Shown here: positions 1,011 through 39,761 of the stretch, in pieces
How the letters are laid out: each line of letters starts with the position of its first letter
How positions within the stretch are numbered: the stretch's first letter is position 1
Source of the DNA: Gammaproteobacteria bacterium
Lineage (GTDB): Bacteria; Pseudomonadota; Gammaproteobacteria; JAUHZG01
DNA: 42,322 nt
Assembly (NCBI GenBank): GCA_030425845.1
Contig: JAUHZG010000003.1
Span: forward strand, 1 to 42,322
Direction of reading: 5' to 3'
Notes under the pieces: model-generated
Seen by the model: the letters and a program-made list of their open reading frames with translations, nothing else
Told to the model about the DNA's origin: nothing
Databases searched by the model: none
Position numbers and translations under genes: made by a program

Positions 1011-1043
1011 CCTAGAAATGTGCGCTCAACTGCCGATTCTAGG
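1011..1043. mobile_element. 33-bp mini element, stand-alone terminal module of the MITE family
   Basis: CCTAGAAATGTGCGCTCAACTGCCGATTCTAGG is 31/33 identical to the reverse complement of 31261-31293. Flanks are ATAAT (1006-1010) and ATAGT (1044-1048). Confidence 0.8.
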
Positions 1044-1144
1044 ATAGTTATAAAATTAACGATTTTTGATGAAAAAGCAAGGAGATTTTTAGTGAGATTG
1101 TTGCGGTGTTTGAGGGGGGCGCCGTTTGGTATGGGGAGGGGGAC

Positions 1145-1178
1145 GTAGGGTAGCTTAGCGCGCAGCGCGGAAGCTACC
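1145..1178 (+). repeat. GTAG-type REP-like palindrome
   Basis: GTAG-GGTAGCTT-AGCGCGCAGCGC-GG-AAGCTACC; related copies near 11196 and 17021. Confidence 0.7.
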
Positions 1179-1191
1179 ATGTTGGTATGTC

Positions 1192-2013
1192 TTATAAGTC
1201 TAACAACTCTTTTAATTGCTCGCTGAGAGCCACATAGATCGAACGAAGTTCTGGTGTTGCATCTAATGCGGCCAGATGCTTATCAATGACTTGGGTATCG
1301 CCTCTGGCAAGTGGGCCGGTCAGAGCGCTTTTTAGATCAAGAGCATCTTTGGCATTGGTGACGACTCCCTGCATCAAGCTATGCGAGATATGATGAGAGG
1401 TCTTGGCATTGATCCCACACTCGGCATAGAGTTTTTGTGCTATATGATAGAGTGCAATAGGAAAGTTCGCTGCGAACACAGAAGCTGCGTGGTAGCGCCC
1501 TTTGTCTGCGGGATCAATGGTGAAGGGGGTTGCCCCAATTTGGGTAAATAAAGGAATAAGTACACTAAGAGCTGCGTTATCGCCATCGGTGGCACAATAA
1601 GTTCCTGAAAAGTGGGCGATGGCTTTGTCAGGATCGGCAAAACTGCGTAAGGGGTGCACGCTTGCGATGAGTGCGCCCTCAGCTTGTAGGGGGGCCAGAA
1701 CATCAGAGCTGTAGGTGCCACTTAGATGAAAGACGATAGTTCCTGCATTGACAACACCTGCTTGACTGAGTGCGTGAGCTACCTGTGCGATGCTGCTGTC
1801 ATCGACGGCGATCATGATGATGTCACAAGGCTTTATCTCATTAAGATCATGATAAGCGTGCAATGCGCCGAGTTCTTCTTGCGCGCACTGCGTACTTTTG
1901 TGACGCCTGTTGAGAATACCGGTCAGTGAAATTAACTGGTTACCAAGCAGTAATTTGGCAATGCTTTTACCAGTTTTACCCGCGCCAATTAACGTCAATG
2001 AATGTTGGTTCAT
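1192..2013 (-). CDS. Rossmann-like + DUF2520 oxidoreductase (PanG-like ketopantoate reductase candidate)
   Basis: N-terminal IGAGKTG; motifs FHLSG, SVHPLRSF, YHAASVFAAN, ALTGPLARGD. Confidence 0.8.
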   Translation of the reverse strand: MNQHSLTLIGAGKTGKSIAKLLLGNQLISLTGILNRRHKSTQCAQEELGALHAYHDLNEIKPCDIIMIAVDDSSIAQVAHALSQAGVVNAGTIVFHLSGTYSSDVLAPLQAEGALIASVHPLRSFADPDKAIAHFSGTYCATDGDNAALSVLIPLFTQIGATPFTIDPADKGRYHAASVFAANFPIALYHIAQKLYAECGINAKTSHHISHSLMQGVVTNAKDALDLKSALTGPLARGDTQVIDKHLAALDATPELRSIYVALSEQLKELLDL

Positions 2014-2033
2014 AATGTTCCAGATTAGAGTTG

Positions 2034-2102
2034 AAAAAAATTTATCGACTGAGAGGTCCGAGGTTGGTAATTAATTTTCCGAACTTCTCACCAGTTCGAT
2101 AA
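2034..2102 (-). promoter_or_regulatory. Leader stem-loop followed by U7 tract upstream of the PanG-like gene (possible attenuator)
   Basis: On the minus strand UUAUCGA pairs with UCGAUAA and UGAGAAGUUCGG pairs with UCGGACCUCUCA (one mismatch), then AUUUUUUU, about 20 nt before the ATG at 2013. Confidence 0.45.
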
Positions 2103-2262
2103 CTTCATGACTATTATGACATTTTTTGATTATAAGTTTTAACATTTTACTAAAAATTTGCTATAAAAATTGTCGCAAGCTGTTGTTAACTGATTTGCTG
2201 TTTTTAGGTAAGTTGCAATTTGCTTGTGATTGGATTAGTTTGATCAATCAGGGGTGCGTTTT

Positions 2263-2796
2263 ATGGAAGAAGACAGAAGCTGGCATTTAGCCGATGACTC
2301 ACAAGAGATGGCTCTGACTGAGTTTGAATTTCTGTTGTGGCGTGTATTCTCCTCTTTCATTCGCTGGCAAGAAGATTGTTCTGCGGCTATTTGTGACGAT
2401 GAGCTCAATGGCCACGAGATTGCAATCTTACATATTATCGGCATTAAAGGCCGCCCCAAATCGAGCTACGAAATTTGCCGACTGCTCAATCGTGATGACA
2501 CCGCTAATATCCGTTATGGGATTAAGAAGCTGGTGAAGCAAGATCTGATAGAGAAGGTCGACAATGGTAGCAAGAAGGTAACGAACTATACTGTTACTAA
2601 GAAAGGGCTAGACATTATTACGCGTTATACTGTTGCTAGGAAATCATTGCTAGCATCACGTTTAACAGGAGACGATGTCAAACAATTACAAGATATAACT
2701 AGACAACTTACGACATTAAGAGGGTATTACGATGAAGCTGGCCGAAGTGCTGCGTCCTATACCCCAGAAAATAATAAGGAACAGGAAGTCGCTTAG
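2263..2796 (+). CDS. MarR-like winged-helix transcriptional regulator
   Basis: LTEFEF..WR N-terminus, ICRLLNRDDTANIRYGIKKLVK helix-turn-helix, YTVTKKG wing. ATG 2263 fits the AGGGG SD better than GTG 2254. Confidence 0.8.
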   Translation: MEEDRSWHLADDSQEMALTEFEFLLWRVFSSFIRWQEDCSAAICDDELNGHEIAILHIIGIKGRPKSSYEICRLLNRDDTANIRYGIKKLVKQDLIEKVDNGSKKVTNYTVTKKGLDIITRYTVARKSLLASRLTGDDVKQLQDITRQLTTLRGYYDEAGRSAASYTPENNKEQEVA

Positions 2797-2801
2797 GCGA
2801 T

Positions 2802-2824
2802 AAGCTCTTGCCAGACAAGAGCTT
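2802..2824. promoter_or_regulatory. Perfect 9-bp inverted repeat (operator or RNA hairpin)
   Basis: AAGCTCTTG-CCAGA-CAAGAGCTT between the regulator and the monooxygenase; no U-tract. Confidence 0.4.
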
Positions 2825-2895
2825 GAGAGTGCTACTGGTTTTATGCATTTTTCCTGTGTTTAGTTCAACTGCATTGGAACGCAGGAAGGTGTGTC

Positions 2896-4212
2896 ATGGA
2901 TAAGACAATTGCAATTATCGGTGCTGGACAAGCAGGTTTGCTGCTCGCCGCTAAACTTCTCAACGTCGGCTACGACGTGACTCTTTACTCAGAAAAAACA
3001 CCCCACGAAATACGCCACGGTTATGTGACGTCAAGTCAAGGCTTGTTTGCGAGCTCCTTGGCAATGGAGCGCGAAGCGGGGTTGAACTGTTTCGAGCAAG
3101 CCGTGCCGGACAATACCACTATCAGTTTCACTACGGCCGATCCAGAGCATCATACTAAACTGAATGCTTGGAAAGGGCATACAGACAGTTGCTATCAAGC
3201 CGTCGATCAACGAGTAAAATTCTCAAGATGGCTAGACGTACTTGAGCAACGCGGATTAAAAGTAAACTATCAATCGGTGTCAAAGCAAGCGTGTGAGAAA
3301 TTGGTTGATGATTATGATTTAGTCGTAGTGTGTACAGGTAAAGGTGAGTTATCGCGTTTATTCAAACGGGATGAGGCGAAGAGTTATCACCAAAAGCCAC
3401 CAAGAAAGTTAACGTTATTGTATGTGCACGGTTTACTTGGTGGTGATAACTCTAGTGGTGTGGCTGCCAACTTTATTCCTGGGGTAGGTGAATACTTTGT
3501 GATGCCTGGACTGACACTATCTGGTCGTTGTCACATGATGTTATTTGAAGCGGTCCCTGGCGGTGCTTTTGATTGTTGGGATGAGTGTGACAACAATGAA
3601 GCGATGTTGGCAAAAGCAAAAGAGTTGCTAAAAGAGTATTTGCCTTGGGAGTATGAGCGTTGTTTGGGAGGTATTACCCTAACGGATGAAAAGGCCGTTA
3701 TTCATGGTGAATTTACGCCTGAAATACGTGAACCCATTGCCACTATCAAACCAGGTAAAGCGATATTTGGGCTGGGTGATGCCGTGATGCTAAACGATCC
3801 TATTACTGGTCAAGGTGGTAATAACGCGACGCGTTCAGTACAAATTGTATTTGATGAAATCTTAAAGCATCAAGGAAAAGCATTTGATACCCAATGGATG
3901 CAACAGACTTCCGATAAATGCTGGGAAAAAAATGCTTTCATCATTGCATGGACTAACTCATTTTTTGAGCCACCGACAGAAGCGGCCATGTATTTAATGA
4001 CACAAGCCCAGCGCCATCAAGAAATAGCCGATAAGCTGGCTAATGCGTTTGATAACCCCAATACCCTCGCGGGTTGGACAGAGAGCAAGCAAGCCATCGA
4101 TCGAGCTGTGTTCTTCCTCAAAGCACAGAACAAATGCCGTGATAAAGTGACGTCCTTTAGACGGCCTTTGCACTTGGCAAGAGCGAGGCTCAAAACGCGG
4201 CTGCCAAATTAA
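2896..4212 (+). CDS. Styrene/indole monooxygenase family flavoprotein (StyA-like)
   Basis: IAIIGAGQAG FAD motif, QAVDQRVKF, TGKGEL, GDAVMLNDPITGQGGNNA. Confidence 0.85.
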   Translation: MDKTIAIIGAGQAGLLLAAKLLNVGYDVTLYSEKTPHEIRHGYVTSSQGLFASSLAMEREAGLNCFEQAVPDNTTISFTTADPEHHTKLNAWKGHTDSCYQAVDQRVKFSRWLDVLEQRGLKVNYQSVSKQACEKLVDDYDLVVVCTGKGELSRLFKRDEAKSYHQKPPRKLTLLYVHGLLGGDNSSGVAANFIPGVGEYFVMPGLTLSGRCHMMLFEAVPGGAFDCWDECDNNEAMLAKAKELLKEYLPWEYERCLGGITLTDEKAVIHGEFTPEIREPIATIKPGKAIFGLGDAVMLNDPITGQGGNNATRSVQIVFDEILKHQGKAFDTQWMQQTSDKCWEKNAFIIAWTNSFFEPPTEAAMYLMTQAQRHQEIADKLANAFDNPNTLAGWTESKQAIDRAVFFLKAQNKCRDKVTSFRRPLHLARARLKTRLPN

Positions 4213-6464
4213 GCGGGTACACTTGCCCTTGCTTGCTCAAGGTAAGTGCTAATATCTAGCGACGCAATTTCAGCTTGGTAAGCTTGCTTTTCTTCCTCGA
4301 TTCTTGCATGGTCAACAGCATTAGTGGCTGTTTGTAGTATCGTTTGTCTGCGATCCCAGGCGGCAGATGACGCTTCGTCTGTTGTGATCTGTGAGCAATA
4401 TTCTCTACTGAGTTCTTCGCGCTCTAAAGGTAGCCTTGCTATAGCCGTGTAATAATGTTCATACAAAGTAAGTTTGGCGGTATAAGTTTCTCTTCCCGGT
4501 GTCTGAAAATGGTGAGCAAGGTGATCACGAAGTTCGGTATAGGCACTGGCTCGGGAGCCACCTTCGGCCTCCGTCGCTGCATCGAAAAGCAATTCCTGAA
4601 ACTGTTCTTTCAATATTTGAGGGACTTGATCTTTCAATAGCCCTTTTAGTTCTCCTACAAATCGATTGATACAGCGATTCTTTTCCAATTGATACAAAGC
4701 GGCTTGTGCCCTATCAAGTGGCTCACTAAATAGTGCAGCAGCTTCTCTTAGTTTCTCATAATCCTGTTGGGTCAGGAGTGAGTTGTCATCAGCGCGTACC
4801 CAATTGACTAGCGCTGCTTGCAACGAGCGAATATCTTGCAACGACTTAGCATCAGCCGCTTTAGCGAAAAAAAGACGGACCGTCTCAAAAGCAACGGCAC
4901 TTAATTGGCGATTGTTGTTTTCTAAGAAACGAACAAAGTTTTCCGAGAGGGTCTTTTTAACATTCGTCAGAATAGCCTTTTTGTGTGAGATGCTTGTTTT
5001 AGTTTTTGCATCCAATTCCTTTAACGTGGAAAAAATAGCTTTTGCTTGTGATAAATTTTGCATATGCTTCACACTTAAGCACAACGGATTGATGCTCTTA
5101 AGGGCTTCGTGCATGACAATCTCGCTTGTTTCATTAAGTTCGAACACAGTTGCATGTAAAAGATCTTCCATCAACTCTTGCGTTTCTTGATGACTTTTGA
5201 GTTCACGATAAAAGGGTAAGTGCTCATCACATAATGCGACCAACGTATTCTCGGTAGAGTCTGATAATTCTAGTACGGATTGCACCAGTCTGAGCCCTAT
5301 GACATTCATTGAACGTGCGATATCACTTGATGCAGCTAAATGCGCATTTTGCATCACTGTTTTTAAGATTTTTCGATTACTTTCTTCTTGCAAGAGTTCC
5401 AATACGTCTGATGAAAATTGATTTGACCCAGCTAGCAACCAACCCGCATTTAGTGACATGTCAGAAAAGTTAAAGGCGATATAGTCAGTATGAGTGGCAA
5501 AAATGACAAGATAACATAGCTCGAAACGGGCACCGTAGTGTCCTTGTTTTGCAAGCTCAAACATCGTCGCTAAGTGTTGGTACTCAGGACTTGCGTTGTC
5601 GAGCGATTCTGCCAATGCACCAATTAACGAGGGAACTTCATTACTTTCATAAGTGAATTGGTGAGAAAACGTTTCATGTTTGTCGCGTTGATCTAGTGAT
5701 AATTCTTCTTCGTCAAAAAAGGGCTCCCCACTTAGGCGCGCGCTCATGCGCCTTGCAAAAGCACTGGGTGAAAGGGATGCTTTTTGAGTTAAGTGCTGAT
5801 GGGAGGAGCTGCCAACACGACGTAGCATTTTATAGCGAGCTTCGTAAGTGGCCTCATGAGACGGTTGCGATCCGCTAAGTTCCCCTGCAGGATGAGGGGC
5901 AACGGAACCTCGACGGTGTTTAACCTTCGTATCTTGCTCGATACGACGAGATTTCTCCGCTAGAAGGTGTCTACTGGCATGCGCGAAATCATCATCAGGT
6001 AACAGATCTAGTAGCAGATGGCACTCTTGCTGAAAAAGTTGCTCTTGTTCACGTTGTAAAGCGGGGTTTGCGCTTAAACTGGATTTGCTGAGGATGAGGG
6101 CGTTGCTAAGTAATTCCCAACGAATTTCATTAAGCAATTGCAGGAGGTTGTTAGTGGTCTCGCTGCTATCCTCAAAATAACGATGACTAAGTTGACTTTG
6201 CCGAGCCAGATGGAGTTGGTAGAGTTGCTGCGCTAGTGCAGCCTTTTTCGAAAGCATCAGGTAACGCACAAAAAGTGCATGATCAGCGACTTGCTTTAAT
6301 CGTTCAGCGGTGAGGTTTTGCCACACTCTCTGCAGTTGATTGTAAAGCAACGTGACGCTATCGACTTGTGAACTTGTGTCGTGTTCTTGGGCAAGCGTTC
6401 TTTTGCGGCCAAAACTAAGAAGTCTGGATAAACGAGAAGGTTGAGATGTTAACGGTGCAGCCAT
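4209..6464 (-). CDS. 751-aa helical hypothetical protein, candidate Dot/Icm effector
   Basis: Long ORF with no recognisable domain, Ser-rich disordered patches, C-terminal EEE block, PmrA-like box upstream. Confidence 0.65.
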   Translation of the reverse strand: MAAPLTSQPSRLSRLLSFGRKRTLAQEHDTSSQVDSVTLLYNQLQRVWQNLTAERLKQVADHALFVRYLMLSKKAALAQQLYQLHLARQSQLSHRYFEDSSETTNNLLQLLNEIRWELLSNALILSKSSLSANPALQREQEQLFQQECHLLLDLLPDDDFAHASRHLLAEKSRRIEQDTKVKHRRGSVAPHPAGELSGSQPSHEATYEARYKMLRRVGSSSHQHLTQKASLSPSAFARRMSARLSGEPFFDEEELSLDQRDKHETFSHQFTYESNEVPSLIGALAESLDNASPEYQHLATMFELAKQGHYGARFELCYLVIFATHTDYIAFNFSDMSLNAGWLLAGSNQFSSDVLELLQEESNRKILKTVMQNAHLAASSDIARSMNVIGLRLVQSVLELSDSTENTLVALCDEHLPFYRELKSHQETQELMEDLLHATVFELNETSEIVMHEALKSINPLCLSVKHMQNLSQAKAIFSTLKELDAKTKTSISHKKAILTNVKKTLSENFVRFLENNNRQLSAVAFETVRLFFAKAADAKSLQDIRSLQAALVNWVRADDNSLLTQQDYEKLREAAALFSEPLDRAQAALYQLEKNRCINRFVGELKGLLKDQVPQILKEQFQELLFDAATEAEGGSRASAYTELRDHLAHHFQTPGRETYTAKLTLYEHYYTAIARLPLEREELSREYCSQITTDEASSAAWDRRQTILQTATNAVDHARIEEEKQAYQAEIASLDISTYLEQARASVPA

Positions 6465-6691: not shown

Positions 6692-7006
6692 ATGAAAAAT
6701 AGACAGAGTAAAACGAGTGAGCTTTTATTACGCGACTATGCTTTGTCTGAATTAGGAGTGACAAATAAGCAATCTGCTATGATCCTAGAAACGGCAGTTG
6801 GTTCACCCATTCTAGCGCAACATCTTGATTCATCTAGCATTACAAAAAAAGTCTTCATCACCAACAAGGTGACTTCAGATTTTTTTGAAAAGCTACCTAA
6901 ATCAATCTGTTACCCTAGAAATGCCCGCCCAACAGCCGTTTCTAGGATGATGAAAAGAAGGCAAGCGCGTCATTTCCTAGGGCACGCTTCACTAGTGCCT
7001 GATTAG
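6692..7006 (+). CDS. Small hypothetical ORF, 56 of 104 codons contributed by an in-frame MITE; may not be expressed
   Basis: ORF reads through the whole element at 6784-6946 without a stop; no SD before ATG 6692. Confidence 0.3.
   Translation: MKNRQSKTSELLLRDYALSELGVTNKQSAMILETAVGSPILAQHLDSSSITKKVFITNKVTSDFFEKLPKSICYPRNARPTAVSRMMKRRQARHFLGHASLVPD
6784..6946. mobile_element. 163-bp fold-back MITE, copy 1
   Basis: Terminal inverted repeats CCTAGAAACGGC(A/T)GTTGG; flanked by direct repeat ATGAT (6779-6783, 6947-6951); 8 substitutions and 1 indel versus the reverse complement of 31261-31424 (manual alignment). Confidence 0.92.
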
Positions 7007-7082: not shown

Positions 7083-8438
7083 TTATTGTTTCGCCTGATG
7101 TTTATGGTGTTTATGGATGTACTCTTTGACCTGTTTGCAATAGGTCTCAGGTACAAACCATACGATAACTGCACATAAGGCTATCGACACAGGCAATATC
7201 GACAAAGCGATACGGTAATCTGCAGCACTATAAACATGAACACCATTGATCACCGCATGATTTATATCAAAATGCACAAGTAGCAATCCTGCGACCCACT
7301 GTACGGCGCCACCAAACATCGTAAACATGTTGATGAGGGCAACCGAGGTCGCCGACAGGCTAAGTGGGCTGAGCTCACTGGCAATAGGGAACACTAAAAT
7401 TTGCACCGAGCAAAATGCACCACTTAAAAATAGTAATACAGCCAGTGAGACATCCGATAAACCGGGTAGGTAAATAACGGCACTTACTGTGATAGCCGCG
7501 AGAATCGAGCCGACGAAGAGGGGTAAGCGACGACGATTGATTTTGTTGGAGAGTAAGCCGACGATGGGGCCCCCGACTGCCCAGCCGATATAAATCAGTG
7601 AGTTGATTTGACCTGCTCTCACGTTGCTCAGGTGATGAGTGGTTTCTAAGAACGGGATGCCCCATAGGCTACCAAACAAAGCAACCAACAAAAATAAGAA
7701 GCAACCAATAAAGCCGATGAACCACATTTCTTTACGGAGAATCAGCCGACCTAAACCTGCAATCGCGCCCCACAAGCTTGGGATGTGTAGACGCATCTTG
7801 CGCGAAAGAGGACTTTTACTACGTGGTTGGATGAAAAACACAATCAGTATACCAAGTATCACGCCAAGGGCGGAGGCGATGAAAATAGTATTTTGCCAGC
7901 CATAACGGTTCACAAAAAAAGTTAACGTATTATCGCCGATGATAGGGCCTAACATTCCGATAGTGGTAATAAGTCCGGCGGCAAAAGCGAAGCGCTCGCG
8001 AGGTAACCAAATGGTAGCAAGCTTCATTGCTCCGACAAAGGCAAAAGCAGAGCCAAATCCGACTAAGAAGCGGCCGAATTCTGCGATGGAGACTGTTGTG
8101 GTACTGGCAAACAAGTAGCTCCCAAAAACACAGGCGGCTACAGCAAAAAGCAGTAGTCGTCTTGGGCCGTAACGATCCATTAGCACACCTACCGCAGCTT
8201 GCATTGGGGTATAGGCAAGATAATAGAAGGTGGAGAGACCGCCCAGTGAGGCAGCAGAAAGGCCAAACGCTTTCATCAAATCTTGTGTCATTACGCTGGG
8301 TAAAATACGCAGGTAGAACTCATAACCATAAAAAAGTGCTCCAAGTCCGCAGACAAACCATGCGTAAAAGATAGCTTTACTATCCAGTTTTTTGTTGGCT
8401 TTGCTCACGGTAGCACTGTTAGTAGGGTGATCCGACAT
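7083..8438 (-). CDS. MFS transporter, Legionella Pht-like
   Basis: About 12 hydrophobic segments; motif A GVLMDRYGPRR; N-terminal WFVCGLGALFYGYEF; ATG 8438 has a GGAGA SD. Confidence 0.85.
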   Translation of the reverse strand: MSDHPTNSATVSKANKKLDSKAIFYAWFVCGLGALFYGYEFYLRILPSVMTQDLMKAFGLSAASLGGLSTFYYLAYTPMQAAVGVLMDRYGPRRLLLFAVAACVFGSYLFASTTTVSIAEFGRFLVGFGSAFAFVGAMKLATIWLPRERFAFAAGLITTIGMLGPIIGDNTLTFFVNRYGWQNTIFIASALGVILGILIVFFIQPRSKSPLSRKMRLHIPSLWGAIAGLGRLILRKEMWFIGFIGCFLFLLVALFGSLWGIPFLETTHHLSNVRAGQINSLIYIGWAVGGPIVGLLSNKINRRRLPLFVGSILAAITVSAVIYLPGLSDVSLAVLLFLSGAFCSVQILVFPIASELSPLSLSATSVALINMFTMFGGAVQWVAGLLLVHFDINHAVINGVHVYSAADYRIALSILPVSIALCAVIVWFVPETYCKQVKEYIHKHHKHQAKQ

Positions 8439-8569
8439 AAATTTCTCCATAGAATACTGTTCATAAGCAAAATGCAATAGATAACAATAGCATTAACTAG
8501 AGCATTAGCGCTAATTTTAGACAAGCCAGTAGTTGAGAGGCGCCCGGAATAGGGCAAAGACGCGGTGGA

Positions 8570-30609: not shown

Positions 30610-31209
30610 ATGAGTGAACAAACAATTGTTTTAGCGACGAGTAATCAAGGTAAACTAGCCGAATATCAAGCGCTATTAGATCCTGTGGGGTTTAGCGTAA
30701 AGGCACAAAGCGAGTTTGACGTGACTGACGCCGAAGAAACCGGCAAGACCTTTGTTGAGAATGCCATTTTGAAAGCGCGCAATGCGTGTGAGCAAACGGG
30801 TTTAGCGGCGATGGCGGATGACTCGGGTTTGGTGGTTGATGCTTTAGGCGGGGCGCCTGGGATTTATTCGGCTCGCTATGCAGGAGTAGGTGCTGGCAGT
30901 GAAGCGTGTAACGCGAAATTACTTGAAAGCTTAGAAGGCGTGCCTGAGCAAGAGCGTCGTGCGCATTTTCATTGTGCTTTTGTCTTTATGAGTCATGCAG
31001 ACGATCCCGATCCGGTGATTTGTCAGGGGCGATGGTTTGGTTCGATTCTGTTAGCGCCGATGGGCGAGAAAGGGTTTGGTTATGATCCGTTATTTTACGT
31101 ACCAGATCATCACTGCTCGGCTGCGGAACTTGAGCTGGCTGTTAAGAATGAAATCAGTCACCGCGGACAAGCGATGCAGATGTTTTTAGGGATGTTGCAA
31201 GGAGCATAG
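30610..31209 (+). CDS. rdgB: Non-canonical purine NTP pyrophosphatase
   Basis: LATSNQGK, ENAILKAR, ADDSGL, PGIYSARY, GFGYDPLF, KNEISHRG. Confidence 0.96.
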   Translation: MSEQTIVLATSNQGKLAEYQALLDPVGFSVKAQSEFDVTDAEETGKTFVENAILKARNACEQTGLAAMADDSGLVVDALGGAPGIYSARYAGVGAGSEACNAKLLESLEGVPEQERRAHFHCAFVFMSHADDPDPVICQGRWFGSILLAPMGEKGFGYDPLFYVPDHHCSAAELELAVKNEISHRGQAMQMFLGMLQGA

Positions 31210-31256
31210 GGCGTAATCCACCGATGAAAAATAGGTAGTCACGCACGTTGTGCTAA
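31207..31256. repeat. Degenerate REP-like remnants abutting the MITE
   Basis: TAGGGCGTAATCCACC resembles 17007-17018; ACGCACGTTGTGCTAA is identical to 11235-11250. Confidence 0.55.
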
Positions 31257-31260
31257 TTAT

Positions 31261-31424
31261 CCTAGAAACGGCAGTTGGGCGCACATTTCTAGGATAACAG
31301 ATTGATTTAGATAGCATTACAAAAAAAATCTGAAGTCACCTTGTTGGTGATGAAGACTTTTTTTGTAATGCTAGATGAATCAAGATGTTGCGCTAGAATG
31401 GGTGAATCAACTGCCGTTTCTAGG
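31261..31424. mobile_element. 164-bp fold-back MITE, copy 2 (inverted relative to copy 1)
   Basis: Perfect 17-bp terminal inverted repeat CCTAGAAACGGCAGTTG; inner 16-bp inverted repeat TAGCATTACAAAAAAA; flanked by direct repeat ATTAT (31256-31260, 31425-31429). Confidence 0.93.
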
Positions 31425-31459
31425 ATTATGATAAAACGAGTAAGAAAACATAAGCTACC

Positions 31460-33163
31460 ATGACAGAAGTAAAATCACTCTTACAGCAAGCCTTACATTG
31501 GCACCAGCAAGATGAACACGAGCGGGCACAATCGTATTACCAAAAAGTGCTTGTACTCGCCCCTGATAATACCGACGCATTACATGGTTTTGCATTTTTA
31601 TGTGCACAGCTAGGTGAGTACGATAAGGCAAAAGTACTACTGGAGAAAGCATTAAGTGTAGAACCGCACAATCCTACTTTTCGTAATAGTATGGGCAACA
31701 TCTTGATGCGTCAAAAGGATCACCGCGCGGCGACTGAACAGTACTTACTGGTGACCGAGTTTGCTCCTGACTATCCAGAGGGCTTTAATAATTTAGCCAA
31801 CGCGTACTCTGCGCGCGGTTTATTTGATGAAGCATTAGCGGCATATGCGAGTGCGACAGAGCTTGCGCCCGATTATGTGGAGGCGCACTTCAATTTGGGA
31901 CTGCTGTTGATGCGCTTTAAACGCTATCGTGAAGCTTGCATCTCGTTCAACAATGTCATCCGTCTATTTGAGCATCATAGTCCGGCACACTTTCAGTTAG
32001 CGAGCTGCTATTACTTAGAGGAGCAATATGGCAAGGCGCTTGAACATTATCAAATAGTGATGGATAAGCAGCCTCACAATATAGAAGCGATCATCAACAG
32101 CGGGGCATGCCAACTCAAGCTTGGTGACAAAGACGGTGCTCTTGGGTTATTTAATCAAGCTGTCAATTTAGATAAAAGTCATGCCGAAGCCAGAGAAAAT
32201 CTCGCCGCATTATATGTGGATCTCGGTTTTTTCGATCAGGCACTTTATCATTATCATGAACTTTTAAAGCATCATAAAGCCTCAAATGACATTCATTACA
32301 ACATGGCACTTTGTTTCATGGGGCAGGGACAGCTTGAGCAAGCTATCCACTTATATCAACAAATATTACAAACCACACCTAGACATGTACCGTCATTAAT
32401 TAACTTAGCAAGTTGCCATCTACAGCGCGATGAGCAACAAAAAGCGATGTCGATCTTTGAGCAAGCACTCTCAATCGAGCCAAACAATGATTATGCTCTT
32501 TTTATGCTAAAAGCCTTACGTGGCGAGTCCTGTGATGCCCCTCCGGCTAGCTATGTCACGACGCTTTTTGATAACTATGCGGATCATTTTGAGCGTCATG
32601 CTGAGCGTGGCTTACAGTATCGAGTACCAGAGTTAATCCGAGATGAACTAATTTCTCTTTATCCGAACAAACAATGGCGATTGTGTGATCTAGGTGCAGG
32701 AACCGGATTAGCTGCTAAGGCATTACATGATTCAGTACGTGAAGCAGTTGCTATCGATCTCTCGCCTAAGATGTGTGAAAAAGCACGCGAGAGTGAACAA
32801 TATGACTCGGTGATTTGTGGCGATTTGCTCAGTGCGCTGACAACTTTGACGAAGCCATTTGACTTATTTGTTGCAGCTGATGTCTTTGTTTATCTTGGTG
32901 ATCTTGAGCCCGTGTTTACTGAGATTCGTGCGCTCAGTGAGATGGGTACAGTCATTGCGTTTACTACAGAGATGGCCGATGACCGTGCGGGTGTGTCACT
33001 CACTCCCTTTGGCCGCTTTGCGCATAGTGAAGCGTATTTGGTTTCTGTGTTAGAGGCGAGAGGTTTTGCTGTGAAAACTTTTCGCGAGGTGATATTGCGT
33101 ATGCATCGAGATAAACCGTTGTCTGGGTATTTGGTAGTGGCTGAGCTACAGCATTTACACTAG
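31460..33163 (+). CDS. TPR-repeat protein with C-terminal SAM methyltransferase
   Basis: About 10 TPR-like repeats, then YVTTLFDNYA.HFE, DLGAGTG, IDLSPKM, AADVFVYLGDL, GRFAHS. Confidence 0.9.
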   Translation: MTEVKSLLQQALHWHQQDEHERAQSYYQKVLVLAPDNTDALHGFAFLCAQLGEYDKAKVLLEKALSVEPHNPTFRNSMGNILMRQKDHRAATEQYLLVTEFAPDYPEGFNNLANAYSARGLFDEALAAYASATELAPDYVEAHFNLGLLLMRFKRYREACISFNNVIRLFEHHSPAHFQLASCYYLEEQYGKALEHYQIVMDKQPHNIEAIINSGACQLKLGDKDGALGLFNQAVNLDKSHAEARENLAALYVDLGFFDQALYHYHELLKHHKASNDIHYNMALCFMGQGQLEQAIHLYQQILQTTPRHVPSLINLASCHLQRDEQQKAMSIFEQALSIEPNNDYALFMLKALRGESCDAPPASYVTTLFDNYADHFERHAERGLQYRVPELIRDELISLYPNKQWRLCDLGAGTGLAAKALHDSVREAVAIDLSPKMCEKARESEQYDSVICGDLLSALTTLTKPFDLFVAADVFVYLGDLEPVFTEIRALSEMGTVIAFTTEMADDRAGVSLTPFGRFAHSEAYLVSVLEARGFAVKTFREVILRMHRDKPLSGYLVVAELQHLH

Positions 33164-33169
33164 AGCACT

Positions 33170-34459
33170 CTACAGCTTGAGAGATATCTCATTTGTTAAT
33201 TCATTAAGCTGCGTTAAGGGTATAAATTTGATGGTGGTGTCTTTCACTTTGATTGTGTCTATGAATGACTTAGTGACTACTATAGCGCTTTTGGGACTGT
33301 AAGCATCGATGAATGAATGGAAACCCCTTGTTAGCTTGGCTGACTTCATGTTTTGGTATTTGACTTCGATAGGCAAAAACTGCTCTTGATTTTTAAAGAG
33401 TACAAAATCGACTTCGGCACCAGATTTAGTGCGCCAATAATGAATGTTGTAGTTCATGAAGTTTTGAACTTTAAACTTGAGAATTTCTTGAAAAACAAAA
33501 TTTTCAACTAAGAGTCCATTGTCAGTCCTAGCCGAGAAGGCTGAAAAGTTATTAAGAGCACAATTACGAAAGCCATTATCAATAAAATAAAAAATGGGAT
33601 TGCTAGTTAACTCAGTACGTTTGTTTCCGACAAAGGGGGACGTTTTTTGTATAACGAATGTTCGTTCAAGTATGTCTAGATGGTTCCTTATGGTTGTAGT
33701 GCTGACGTTGCAATCTAAAGCTAATTGATTGTAATTGACAAGCTGGCCAGAACTATGGGCAAGTAACGTGATCAATTTGGTAAACACATCCGGTTTACCT
33801 ACTTTAAGGATCTCTATGATGTCTTTTTGTATGTAACGAGAATAAATTTGCTCTAGCTGGAATTGCTTCTTTGTTGATGAGACAACTTGTGGATAGCAGC
33901 CATATAGTAGAGCATCACCATCATTAAGATCTAAATCGCATTCTTTGACGCTAAAGGGATAGATGGTTGCAGTGATCTGCCTACCTGTCAGGTGTTCTTG
34001 AATTTTACTTTTTATTTCCAGCTGAGACGATCCGGTTACAATCAGCTTTAAAGGGAGACCAAGATCAATGATAGATTTAATGAGTAATCCAGGATAATCT
34101 AATCGCTGAATTTCATCAATGAAAATCAAAGGATGATCCATCGTAAACTGTTTGCGTGCTTCTTCGATAAATACGGGCGTCTTCAACCATTCACGGATTG
34201 AAGCATAGTCACAATTTAAATAGAGTAATGTGTTAAACCTTTTCTGATTAATTAACTCTTGGCACAAGAGTTTTCCCAAGGTGGTTTTACCTGCGCGCCT
34301 CGGGCCAACAAGTACAGTGCACAAAGAATCCCATTCTGGGTCCATTAAAAAAGACAGCTGATGCCTTTGTATCATAGCTGTGCTATCGATGGCTTTTACG
34401 TCGGGATTGCTAAGCCATGGGTTCAGCTGGTGCAACTCTTGGTATAACTTTGAGTCCAT
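33170..34459 (-). CDS. AAA+ ATPase (AAA_14) with DUF4143 and PD-(D/E)xK-like C-terminus
   Basis: Walker A GPRRAGKT, Walker B IFIDEIQ, TGSS, LTGR, YFIDNGFRN, YWRT..GAEVDFV...IEVK. Confidence 0.9.
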   Translation of the reverse strand: MDSKLYQELHQLNPWLSNPDVKAIDSTAMIQRHQLSFLMDPEWDSLCTVLVGPRRAGKTTLGKLLCQELINQKRFNTLLYLNCDYASIREWLKTPVFIEEARKQFTMDHPLIFIDEIQRLDYPGLLIKSIIDLGLPLKLIVTGSSQLEIKSKIQEHLTGRQITATIYPFSVKECDLDLNDGDALLYGCYPQVVSSTKKQFQLEQIYSRYIQKDIIEILKVGKPDVFTKLITLLAHSSGQLVNYNQLALDCNVSTTTIRNHLDILERTFVIQKTSPFVGNKRTELTSNPIFYFIDNGFRNCALNNFSAFSARTDNGLLVENFVFQEILKFKVQNFMNYNIHYWRTKSGAEVDFVLFKNQEQFLPIEVKYQNMKSAKLTRGFHSFIDAYSPKSAIVVTKSFIDTIKVKDTTIKFIPLTQLNELTNEISLKL

Positions 34460-36337: not shown

Positions 36338-37279
36338 ATGATCAGGACTTTTTTGCTTTCAATGCTTATGATCTTTTTATGCCAGCTTGGTTTGGCAAGC
36401 AAAGGTTCGGTGACCTTTCCTTTCAAAAACTTCTCTAAGATTGATAGCCAGGGTGATATTAATATTTTTGTCAGCTATGGCAAGCATTACTCGGTGTCTG
36501 CACCTCGTAAAGATGCTTTGCTGTTTCAGCTCACACAGAAAAAAGACACACTGTCAGTAGCGCTTATTCCTGAAACCAAAGTGCGTCCCGATCTTTTTAT
36601 TACTTTGCCGCACGTAGAAAAAATCAGTTACAAAGGCGATGGGGACTTGGTGGCGAACAAGATCCACAGTCATCATCTGAACCTGTTAGTGAATAATGAT
36701 GGTGAAACGTGGATCAGTGGCAAGAAACTTCCTTTGCACTACCTAAAGGACTCTGGACATGGTCCTATCACAGTGAGTCACATGTTAACCAATGATCTGA
36801 TCATTCACATGGGCGGCAAAGGTGTGGTGAACTTACGTGGTATAGCGAACTTGCGCCGTTTAGTTTACGACGGTGAAGGGGCGCTTAACATGTATTGGCT
36901 CAGCAGTTGTGATGTGGATATCATCGGCTCCGGCCATGCTAGTGCTTTTATTGCAGGCGTAGCCGATCATGCCAATATCGTGTTGAGTGGCAAGGCTTAT
37001 CTTAATTCACGTTACTTACGAGCCAAGAAAGAATACATCAAAACACATGGCTATTCGCGCGCTGATGTAACCGCACAGCGTGTATTAAATGCGTTGGCAA
37101 CAGGACACAGTAACGTGTATTACTACATGCGGCCTGAAGTAGCCTTAGGTCGTTACATGAAAGATCACGGCGCTATACTGTCTATGCATAACTTGAAACG
37201 TACCTGCACCGCGCCTATGCCTTTTTATCATCTAGCGCATTGTCCCTTGCCTAGGGTGGGTGGTTTAGCTCGGGCTTAA
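36338..37279 (+). CDS. GIN/DUF2807-like exported beta-helix protein
   Basis: Signal peptide; repeated (S/D)GxGx(V/L/I) units; C-terminal ATGHSNVYY. Confidence 0.75.
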   Translation: MIRTFLLSMLMIFLCQLGLASKGSVTFPFKNFSKIDSQGDINIFVSYGKHYSVSAPRKDALLFQLTQKKDTLSVALIPETKVRPDLFITLPHVEKISYKGDGDLVANKIHSHHLNLLVNNDGETWISGKKLPLHYLKDSGHGPITVSHMLTNDLIIHMGGKGVVNLRGIANLRRLVYDGEGALNMYWLSSCDVDIIGSGHASAFIAGVADHANIVLSGKAYLNSRYLRAKKEYIKTHGYSRADVTAQRVLNALATGHSNVYYYMRPEVALGRYMKDHGAILSMHNLKRTCTAPMPFYHLAHCPLPRVGGLARA

Positions 37280-38266
37280 CATACGCAAAATACCCGATTT
37301 TAGGAAGCTCTTATAGGGAATAACGTCAATGCCATGATGGTGGTAAGCTCTCTCTCCACCATATAAGCAGTAGCATTTTGCTTCAGGGTGATCTTTTGCG
37401 AATAAATTCAAGCCAGAGAAATCTTTTTCACTTAAATTAGATTTACGTTTGATCTCAATGGCATTAAAACCGTTCGGTCCATAGAGGATTAGGTCCACTT
37501 CTGCGCCAGCTGTTTTTCGCCAGAAATAAAAATTGTAGTCTAAGTCATAGTAATCATTGAGTGCTCTACAGTTTTGCAGCAATAAAGTTTTAAGCGCAGG
37601 CCCATCTATTTCTTGGGTACTATCGAGTGGACCTTGAGGGCGTAGGGTTCTATAAATACCTACATCAAAAAAATAAAACTTAGGTGAATTTTGCAGACGT
37701 CGCTTAGCTCGTTTTTTAAAGACAGGAAGTCGAATAGCGATAAGCAGATCATCTAAGATGTCAAAAAAGCGCATAATAGTTTGCCGATTACTCCCTATCT
37801 CCCTTGCAATGGCTGTATAGTTAAGGGCTTCGCCTTGTGAGAAGCTGGCACATTCTAAGAAATTTGTAAATAAAGCTAAATTTCTGGTGAGGCTTTCTTG
37901 TAGTACCTCTTCACGTAGGTAAGTAGAGACATAGCTTTTGAGGTAATGCCAAGGCGCTTCACTTGTGATGGCTTTTGGTAGTAGACCCGATTGTAGTACC
38001 TTATCAAAGGAACAGTCCTTATCGATTTCACACAACGTCAGTGGGTGCATGGTGTGGGTGAGTGCTCTCCCAGCTAGGAGGTTGATGCCTTTCTTGCGTA
38101 GTGAGCGAGCGCTTGATCCGGTGAGTATGAACTGATAACGATGGCTTTCTATTAGTCGGTGAACTTCATTGAGTAGGGCGGGAATTTTTTGGATCTCATC
38201 GATGATAATAGGTTTATCATAATCAGCTGGAATCCTCGATGCGAGTAGGCTAGGTTTGGTGAGCAG
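37265..38266 (-). pseudogene. 5'-truncated AAA_14/DUF4143 ATPase
   Basis: Frame stays open upstream of ATG 38050 to 38266 (IIIDEIQKIP, FILTGSSAR, NLLAGRA), then meets TAA at 38269-38267. Walker A and a start codon are missing. Confidence 0.85.
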
Positions 38267-38453: not shown

Positions 38454-39761
38454 GTGGAGCGCAGTATTACAAAGAAATTGATTGACTGGAAAAGTAGCTC
38501 CAGGCGTAAGCCCCTGCTTGTGGCAGGCGCAAGGCAGGTAGGTAAGACACATAGTGTTAATGCGTTTGGGCAGTCACACTATGACAATGTTGCTTATTTT
38601 AATTTTGAAGCGACTCCCCAGTTGCGAAAAGCATTTGAAGGTGAGTTAAATCCCCCAGAGTTAATTGAAAACTTAACGATAGTGGGGAATGTTTCAATAG
38701 TTCCGCATAAGACATTGATCTTTTTTGATGAAATACAGTTGTGTCCCAATGCGTTAACATCACTAAAATATTTCAATGAAACTCATAACGAGTACCACAT
38801 TATCGCAGCCGGTTCATTATTGGGCGTTGCCCTATCTCAATCGATGAGCTTTCCTGTTGGTAAGGTGAATATCCTTAATTTGTACCCATTGTCTTTCCAT
38901 GAATTCTTACTGGCTGTGGGGGAAGATAAGCTGGCACAATTACTGTTTCAGCAAGAACTCAAGGTCTCTTATTCAGCACTGATTCATGAAAAGAGTGTAG
39001 AGCTATTCAAAAAGTACCTGTACGTGGGAGGGATGCCCGAAGCTGTTAAGTACTATAGCGCGACTAGGCAACTCAACGAAATCAGAACGATTCAACAAGA
39101 AATAGTCTATGCGAATGAACGCGATTTTTCTAAGTATGCAAGTGGTGCAGAGGCTGTTCGTGTAGCGCAAATATGGCACTCAATGGTTGCTCAACTTGGC
39201 AGAGAGAATAAAAAATTTATTTTTTCTGTAATAAATGATTCAGCCCGTGCACGTGAATATGAGCGAGCCATACTATGGTTGCTTAATGCTGGTTTGGTGC
39301 ATAAAGTCGCTGCTGTGAAAAAGCCTGGTTTGCCCCTTGCCACTTATGCAAATACAAGCAGATTTAAGTTGTATTTGGGTGACGTTGGACTCTTAGGTGC
39401 ACTGGCCGAGTTACCTGCGTCAATTTTACTTGAAGGTGACACACTATTTAATCATTTCAAAGGTATGCTAACAGAAAATGCAGTTTTGCAGAGCCTTGTG
39501 GCTGAGGGGGCGGGAGATCTGTACTACTGGACCTCGGGTCGAACAGCCGAGATAGACTTTGTTTTTCAAGCTGGGGAGACAACTCAGGCGCTAGAGTGTA
39601 AATCAGGGAGGCAAGTTAGTAGTCGTAGTTATACTCAGTATAAAGAAAAATATCCCACAAGTCCTATCACAAAGACCTCATTGAACAATCTTAGTTTTGA
39701 TGACGCGGGCAATATTGCTAACTACCCGCTGTATCTTGTGGGACGCTCAGTATCAGGTTAA
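38454..39761 (+). CDS. AAA+ ATPase (AAA_14) with DUF4143 and PD-(D/E)xK-like C-terminus
   Basis: GARQVGKT, IFFDEIQ, AAGSLLG, FPVGKV, GGMPE, KLYLGDVGLL, YYW...AEIDFV...LECKSG. Confidence 0.92.
   Translation: MERSITKKLIDWKSSSRRKPLLVAGARQVGKTHSVNAFGQSHYDNVAYFNFEATPQLRKAFEGELNPPELIENLTIVGNVSIVPHKTLIFFDEIQLCPNALTSLKYFNETHNEYHIIAAGSLLGVALSQSMSFPVGKVNILNLYPLSFHEFLLAVGEDKLAQLLFQQELKVSYSALIHEKSVELFKKYLYVGGMPEAVKYYSATRQLNEIRTIQQEIVYANERDFSKYASGAEAVRVAQIWHSMVAQLGRENKKFIFSVINDSARAREYERAILWLLNAGLVHKVAAVKKPGLPLATYANTSRFKLYLGDVGLLGALAELPASILLEGDTLFNHFKGMLTENAVLQSLVAEGAGDLYYWTSGRTAEIDFVFQAGETTQALECKSGRQVSSRSYTQYKEKYPTSPITKTSLNNLSFDDAGNIANYPLYLVGRSVSG

Follow-up and report, generated by a model that had tools for sequence, protein, structure and literature searches.

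In this work, we analyzed a repeat that occurs twice at full length in the window, that is, in the whole stretch of 42,322 nucleotides of DNA under study. Comparison of its sequence with those of other genomes makes it very probable that the repeat is a MITE of a divergent IS1380-like family, moved in trans, formed by the mirroring of the left end of an insertion sequence, and represented in the host by copies that are now orphaned. The repeat is a real MITE of the ordinary kind: it is small, carries no gene, ends in inverted repeats, is dispersed, and is flanked by target duplications that vary from copy to copy. The evidence comes from the anatomy of the window copies, the distribution and flanks of the family in the host genome, and a clade of insertion sequences that carries the same ends elsewhere.

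Anatomy of the copies in the window

The first full-length copy, delimited by BLAST, its flanks and its fold, spans 164 bp on the + strand (31261..31424) and is enclosed by a direct repeat of the target sequence ATTAT (31256..31260 on the left and 31425..31429 on the right). It begins with the left terminal inverted repeat CCTAGAAACGGCAGTTG (31261..31277, + strand), the same end that bounds IS1380-like insertion sequences elsewhere, and finishes with the right terminal inverted repeat (31408..31424, - strand), the pair being perfect over 17 bp. Further inwards, a 16-bp inner stem (31312-31327 paired with 31358-31373) leads to the apex palindrome TCACC-TTGTT-GGTGA (31336..31350, + strand), which corresponds to a palindrome that the parent insertion sequences carry 77-100 nt inside their left end. 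Terminal repeat, inner stem and TCACC/GGTGA apex together make the element one long hairpin: folded as single-stranded DNA it reaches -48.7 kcal/mol, compared with -13.2 +/- 2.5 for shuffled sequences (n=200; z = -14.4; 0/200 as good). The hairpin with 17-bp ends, 16-bp inner stem and TCACC/GGTGA apex that the first-pass annotation had drawn from the letters is thus borne out.

The second full-length copy, found by BLAST on the - strand (6784..6946), is 163 bp long and lies between two copies of ATGAT as read on the + strand (6779..6783 and 6947..6951). It is 94.5% identical to the first over 164 columns (9 differences, E 4e-68), which agrees with the eight substitutions and one indel between inverted copies that the annotation had counted at these coordinates; the 5-bp direct repeat that it had assigned to each copy, ATTAT in one case and ATGAT in the other, was found at both flanks as described. 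In addition, a 33-bp mini-derivative equal to the element's first 33 nt is located at 1011..1043 on the - strand, with flanks ATAAT (1006-1010) and ATAGT (1044-1048) matching at 4/5 positions.

The window is otherwise ordinary chromosome, with genes for L27, Obg, S20, GlnA, dUTPase and CoaBC. The MITE at 31261-31424 has a Ham1-family gene (30610-31209) on one side and a TPR/methyltransferase gene (31460-33163) on the other, and that at 6784-6946 lies between a gene for a 751-aa protein without Pfam match (4209-6464) and an MFS transporter gene (7083-8477). None of the 45 ORFs of the window scanned against Pfam contains a transposase domain, in line with the earlier statement that the window holds no transposase. 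The sole ORF spanning a window copy (6692-7006, + strand, 104 aa) runs straight across the element; it is probably spurious, since it matches no Pfam family and inspection by eye showed no ribosome-binding site, and the MITE is thus without recognised coding capacity. An Rfam search of the window gave no match, and promoter and terminator scans placed no site within either window copy. As a separate observation, three DUF4143 paralogues, two of them also with an AAA_14 ATPase domain, are found inside 7 kb of the window (33170-34456, 37265-38047 and 38454-39758).

Copies in the host genome and their target site

The host is an uncultured, deep-branching gammaproteobacterium, whose assembly comprises 1.907 Mb in 198 contigs (46.1% G+C, completeness 85.7%). 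No relative closer than class was found among the 40 same-class genomes compared, and the host GlnA is at most 82% identical to any other, the nearest named matches being Legionellales MAGs and Piscirickettsia. BLASTN over this genome with tabulation of the flanks, as the first-pass annotation had proposed, recovered 18 full copies, another one truncated by a contig end, and 12 mini-derivatives. The full copies, of 162-164 bp, are spread over 17 contigs. Identity to the window copy is 93-100% for 17 of them and 83% for the remaining one, and the median pairwise identity between copies is 95.7% (range 82.7% to 100%). All 18 are intergenic, in the sense that they lie between larger ORFs according to crude ORF calls.

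Perfect 5-bp duplications flank 15 of the 18 full copies and include seven different 5-mers, namely ATTAT (seven copies), ATCAT and TTTAA (two each), and ATGAT, ATAAT, TTAAA and TTTAT (one each); among the imperfect flanks, two copies have 4/5 positions alike and the diverged copy 3/5. The flanking duplications therefore do vary among copies, as expected from independent insertions in the earlier reading of the sequence. That reading also restricted the target to ATNAT: the 5-bp duplication stands, and the strict motif does not, since ATNAT accounts for 11 of the 15 perfect duplications and the other four are TTAAA, TTTAA (twice) and TTTAT. The target site is WTNAW, of which ATNAT is a part. 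Left and right flanks agree at the free central base, which identifies them as a duplication and not as an extension of the inverted repeat. Two other explanations of the flanks were discarded on the same observation: an IS630 or mariner-type element with a TA target, given that the flanks are direct repeats including the free central base, and a reading of the flanking AT as part of the inverted repeat, given that the flanks match directly at all positions, the central one included.

The mini units of the host (11 besides that at window positions 1011-1043) are 33 bp long, with one of 40 bp, and are identical to nt 1-33 of the element. They have 5-bp duplications of their own, perfect in 7/12 and with one mismatch in 3/12. 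As the unit ends in an inverted tip, self-mobility is conceivable, and the mini units may have moved by themselves via an internal pseudo-end; alternatively, each may be the remnant of a full insertion that underwent deletion between its 8-bp direct repeats TTTCTAGG (at nt 26-33 and 157-164).

Two sequencing runs covering the stretch give identical figures and, for that reason, may be one data set filed twice. Read contigs of both runs end at the element borders and none joins across the element. Over window positions 31228-31447 the summed contig depth amounts to 170-480, compared with about 5 in the flanking sequence, a depth sum that is not a copy number; the sample may hold more copies than the 18 assembled.

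The same ends in other genomes

The exact 17-mer CCTAGAAACGGCAGTTG is present in at least 121 stretches of species-representative genomes, which among the matches listed come from Burkholderiales and other Gammaproteobacteria, Nitrospirales, Chlamydiae, Verrucomicrobia, Acidobacteria and others. The end was detected in 14 of 401 sampled genomes of the host's class, and a reversed-pattern control in none of them. A second, inverted end lies 90-430 bp off in most loci, with modes near 163 and 234 bp. Among 77 MITE-sized elements with the same ends found outside the host, the 5-bp duplication is perfect in 45 and has one mismatch in 19; WTNAW fits 40 of the 45 perfect ones, and NTNAN fits all 45.

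The 163-bp type aligns over its full length between the host genome and Nitrospirales, Nitrospinota and Chlamydiae MAGs. The 234-bp type (31 elements), which does not fold back, likewise contains the TCACC..GGTGA palindrome, at about 80 nt from one of its ends, and seems to derive from the same insertion sequences by internal deletion. One complete Nitrospirales chromosome alone carries 327 ends (162 + 165), that is, about 160 elements. On this chromosome, nearly all exact ends located before 3.03 Mb or past 3.96 Mb are on the + strand and most of those between these two positions are on the - strand, so that the elements look co-oriented by chromosome region.

Insertion sequences bounded by these ends

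A weak PF13701 match in a Chlamydiae MAG, a 5'-truncated ORF of 382 aa (52.2 bits against a cut-off of 34.7), has an inward-facing CCTAGAAACGGCAGTTG-type end 45 bp past its stop codon. This locus (1129-3071) also presents an insertion sequence inside another, with an IS66-family transposase gene (PF03050) interrupting the IS1380-like copy at its 5' side. Homologues of the protein in a second genome (46-52% identity) lie mostly at contig ends, and the same inward end follows the homologues in 7/9 loci of three genomes, the Nitrospirales chromosome and the query locus included. Such relatives are abundant: 6354 of 8000 candidates scored reach E <= 1e-10 and, among the matches listed, they are mostly 500-560 aa long and mostly on contigs of 1.6-2.5 kb.

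We aligned 11 full-length relatives and took 80 metagenome loci, accepting as an end any sequence with at most 3 mismatches in 16. At least one end was found in 69 of these loci and both ends in 43, the paired ends being 1613-1845 bp apart (median 1649) around one transposase gene of about 540 aa, with the end consensus CCTA[A/G]AAACGGCAGTT[G/A]. Perfect 5-bp duplications flank 10 of 40 full insertion sequences and duplications with one mismatch another 10, compared with 2/40 in a shifted control; the perfect ones are ATTAT (three times), TTGAA, ATCAA, TTAAT, TTCAA, ATGAA, TTCAT and ATAAT. The 30/40 full insertion sequences of metagenome contigs without a perfect duplication may be explained by collapsed repeat contigs with chimeric flanks. 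A cultured example is found on plasmid CP087967.1 of Polaromonas sp. P1-6, where a 1630-bp element, its gene annotated merely as "transposase", is bordered by TTAAA on both sides. At this locus (624-2844), the full insertion sequence adjoins a gene for a site-specific integrase and is followed, 358 bp downstream, by a 234-bp MITE that has the same ends. The first-pass annotation had taken the element to be non-autonomous and moved in trans by an insertion sequence with the same ends; such insertion sequences do exist, with both ends in 43 of 80 loci, and mobilisation in trans is predicted from this correspondence.

The search for the transposase that the annotation had suggested was successful in other genomes, and gave nothing in the host assembly by any of three approaches. 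A PF13701 search of the host genome found no match, nor did a query with the Chlamydiae transposase protein, and a profile built on the 11 transposases gave, with all filters off, a best E of 2.4 over the complete set of host six-frame ORFs of at least 30 aa. The profile is the stronger test because PF13701 alone missed homologue fragments in the second genome. Absence of the partner from the host is nevertheless not proven, since such bins frequently miss repeats and this assembly is not complete. As no partner transposase is present in an assembly that is 85.7% complete, the host copies are probably stranded now.

Several candidates for the partner were rejected. The canonical IS1380-type elements of four MITE-carrying genomes have other ends; pairs of ends 0.9-1.7 kb apart in the Nitrospirales genome enclose unrelated ORFs and have unmatched duplications; and weak PF13701 matches in three genomes, the Nitrospirales one included, lack such ends. 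Besides, the inner sides of 26 single-end loci (with ORFs drawn from 13) revealed no ORF in common.

Probable assignment to a divergent branch of the IS1380 family

For the full-length transposases, the best NCBIfam match is NF033539 (IS1380), which covers positions 9-415 of 419 with E values from 1e-39 to 1e-45, at scores of 134-154 bits that are under the curated cut-off of 180. Weak matches are given by IS1634, IS701 and IS4 models, and PF13701 and PF01609 are on record for relatives of the transposase. In the ISfinder definition, the IS1380 family, to which the insertion sequence ISEcp1 belongs, has a 4-5-bp duplication and ends beginning with CC. The canonical IS1380-type elements inspected in MITE-carrying genomes begin with CCCAGA or CCCAAGA and make 5-bp duplications; they have different ends from the elements studied here, for example CCCAGATAATCC and CCCAAGATCCGCG, and duplications such as ATAAA in one genome and GAATA and TCCCC in two of three copies of the Nitrospirales genome. 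IS1247, a member of the family, is given in the available part of its source as 1672 bp long, with inverted repeats of 16/13 and a duplication of 5 (PMC3281130). We place the partner in the IS1380 family because NF033539 is its best match, because of PF13701 and PF01609, and because its duplications are of 5 bp as in IS1247; judged by its sequence, it would be a divergent, widespread and unnamed clade of that family.

Origin of the fold-back shape and proposed mechanism

The palindrome at the apex of the MITE provides a link to one particular end of the insertion sequences. A palindrome of the form [TC]CACC-N3-7-GGTG[AG] is present in 16/18 host copies and 42/77 MITEs elsewhere, compared with 10/1540 shuffled sequences, and also in 41/44 full insertion sequences. 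It is confined almost entirely to one side of the latter, being found within 130 nt of 41/44 left ends and 1/44 right ends; its distance from that left end is 77-100 nt in the 20 insertion sequences inspected, and in the MITE it starts at nt 76. In the insertion sequences it overlaps a conserved H-P-M-G-E near the N-terminus of the transposase and, in our reading, in some copies also an ATG behind a GGAGG-like site. Comparison of the MITE arms with a left-end profile gave 18 matches at E <= 100, the best of them weak (0.0012), and comparison with a right-end profile gave none; outside the palindrome, the similarity between arm and left end is weak. Given that the apex palindrome is the palindrome inside the left end of the insertion sequence, the element looks like that left end mirrored at its internal palindrome, which is the simplest reading of these sequences.

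Altogether, we propose the following model. The element would be a gene-less MITE with the 17-bp ends of a divergent, piggyBac-related branch of IS1380. It would have been born when the left end of an insertion sequence, about 80 nt up to the palindrome at the beginning of the transposase gene, was mirrored at that point, for example by strand switching in replication. A DDE transposase of about 540 aa, encoded by an insertion sequence of about 1.65 kb, would act in trans by binding both ends, excise or copy the element and, as its anatomy and family suggest, insert it at WTNAW via a 5-nt staggered cut, the repair of which would leave the 5-bp duplication. In this way, the family would have been amplified in the host to at least 18 full copies, all between genes.

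Weighing of alternative explanations

A mirrored end would account for the hairpin at birth, and it could be asked whether the hairpin has since been kept by selection on one strand, as read-through RNA or as single-stranded DNA, with a function such as stabilisation or processing of transcripts or the element's own transposition. We regard this as a tentative possibility and on balance unlikely. In 18 elements of the 163-bp type from the host genome and the Nitrospirales, Nitrospinota and Chlamydiae MAGs, 93.1% of cells pair, against 76.9% after shuffling (none of 500 shuffles as high) and 37-55% with slid partners, although the sequences are related and the shuffle control therefore overstates the signal. 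Both sides have changed in 30/53 pairs, but separate births from different left ends of insertion sequences, palindromic at once, would mimic such covariation. Host and Nitrospirales families have in common unequal subterminal arms (GGGCGCA / GATCAC or GATTCAC), which points to a shared ancestor and to compensated change thereafter. On the strand shown, G.T cells exceed A.C cells by 84 to 12 (29 to 12 within the host genome), and in tandem-gene contexts 7/8 host copies are co-oriented with the genes, according to crude ORF calls and our own reading; strand-biased C-to-T change together with co-orientation could, however, yield the G.T excess without selection, and the 234-bp type does not have this excess (GU 57, AC 65). 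The lack of terminator-like and promoter-like sites inside both window copies and of any Rfam match likewise does not favor a selected function. The more far-reaching combination of one-strand selection across phyla with a 33-bp unit that is mobile by itself via an internal pseudo-end appears improbable; if true, that unit would rank with the smallest known transposable elements.

The other explanations concern how the repeat was spread. Its hairpin shape, the intergenic position of 18/18 copies and the 33-bp derivatives would also suit a REP/REPIN-like or regulatory palindrome spread without a staggered cut, by a RAYT-type enzyme or by recombination. REP/REPIN elements are not known to have a target duplication, whereas here the duplications vary by copy and the left one equals the right one, central base included, in 15/18 copies of the host and 45/77 elsewhere. 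Variable matched duplications are the mark of staggered-cut insertion and disfavor this reading, to which we give hardly any credence. It is also very improbable that the element was mobilised by another family with short duplications (of the IS5, IS630, Tn3 or IS1634 type) and that the IS1380 link is a chance end motif. Such a view could appeal to a host assembly without an IS1380-like partner and to the weak matches of the transposases to IS1634, IS701 and IS4 models. Chance is nonetheless hard to reconcile with 16-17 nt of end in common instead of a short motif, with ends that flank the gene on either side and face inwards, as they should, in 43/80 loci, with a true pattern found in 14/401 genomes and a reversed control in none, and with insertion sequences that also carry the 5-bp WTNAW duplication and the internal palindrome. 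Mobilisation in trans by the divergent IS1380-like clade thus remains the preferred reading.

Significance and comparison with known systems

The first-pass annotation did not recognise the element as a named family, and the literature gave no reason to revise this. The end motif CCTAGAAACGGCAGTTG was not found in the literature searched, no publication on an IS1380-derived MITE was found among papers containing the terms IS1380 and MITE (supplements aside), and the main text of a 2024 MITE review (PMC10969869) contains neither IS1380 nor piggyBac, "5-bp" or "5 bp". We thus did not find this MITE family described in the printed record so searched, and tie it here to its clade of insertion sequences. 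An unannotated repeat that breaks assemblies and adjoins gene starts and ends is thereby connected to a definite family of mobilising enzymes. The clade itself, with 6354 relatives among the 8000 candidates, is very common and yet scores below the NCBIfam cut-off for IS1380. Furthermore, the mirroring of one end of an insertion sequence at an internal palindrome would offer a simple origin for hairpin-shaped MITEs.

Among the known small repeats, Rickettsia palindromic elements insert in frame within genes. Compared by description, the window family is unlike them, as 18/18 of its copies lie between larger ORFs (crude ORF calls). It also differs from REP/REPIN elements in having target duplications. 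With bacterial MITEs, and with QMITE1 and QMITE2 of Coxiella, it shares small size, multiple copies, terminal inverted repeats, flanking direct repeats and a strong predicted stem-loop. The available part of PMC5896051 describes QMITE1 as 300-400 bp long with 2-4-bp direct repeats, and QMITE2 as 150-190 bp long with 7-9-bp direct repeats and short REP-like derivatives. QMITE2 thus resembles the window family in size and in its short derivatives, and both differ from it in the length of the repeats, which here are 5-bp duplications at WTNAW. The comparison with QMITE1/2 that the annotation had advised was made on these partial descriptions, and it sets the families apart at that level.

The closest likeness is to the IS1380 family, exemplified by IS1247 and ISPme1, in which the ends begin with CC, the duplication is of 5 bp and a single DDE transposase gene with PF13701 is present; the parents of the window element, at 1613-1845 bp, are also comparable in length to IS1247 (1672 bp). 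In contrast to the insertion sequences of the family, the window element carries no gene, and its parents depart from the canonical members by transposases of about 540 aa that fall below the NCBIfam cut-off and by their different ends, CCTARAAACGGCAGTT. More distantly, the ends of piggyBac begin with CCCTAGAAAG and its insertion is at TTAA, a possible likeness to CCTAGAAAC and the T-T-N-A-A of the window family. In the available part of PMC10813416, IS1380 transposases are the prokaryotic outgroup of piggyBac in phylogenies, and piggyBac makes a 4-bp TTAA duplication. The window family differs from piggyBac in being prokaryotic and in duplicating 5 bp rather than 4 bp, and its five-base WTNAW target, set against TTAA, provides a useful comparison for the study of target choice in the superfamily.
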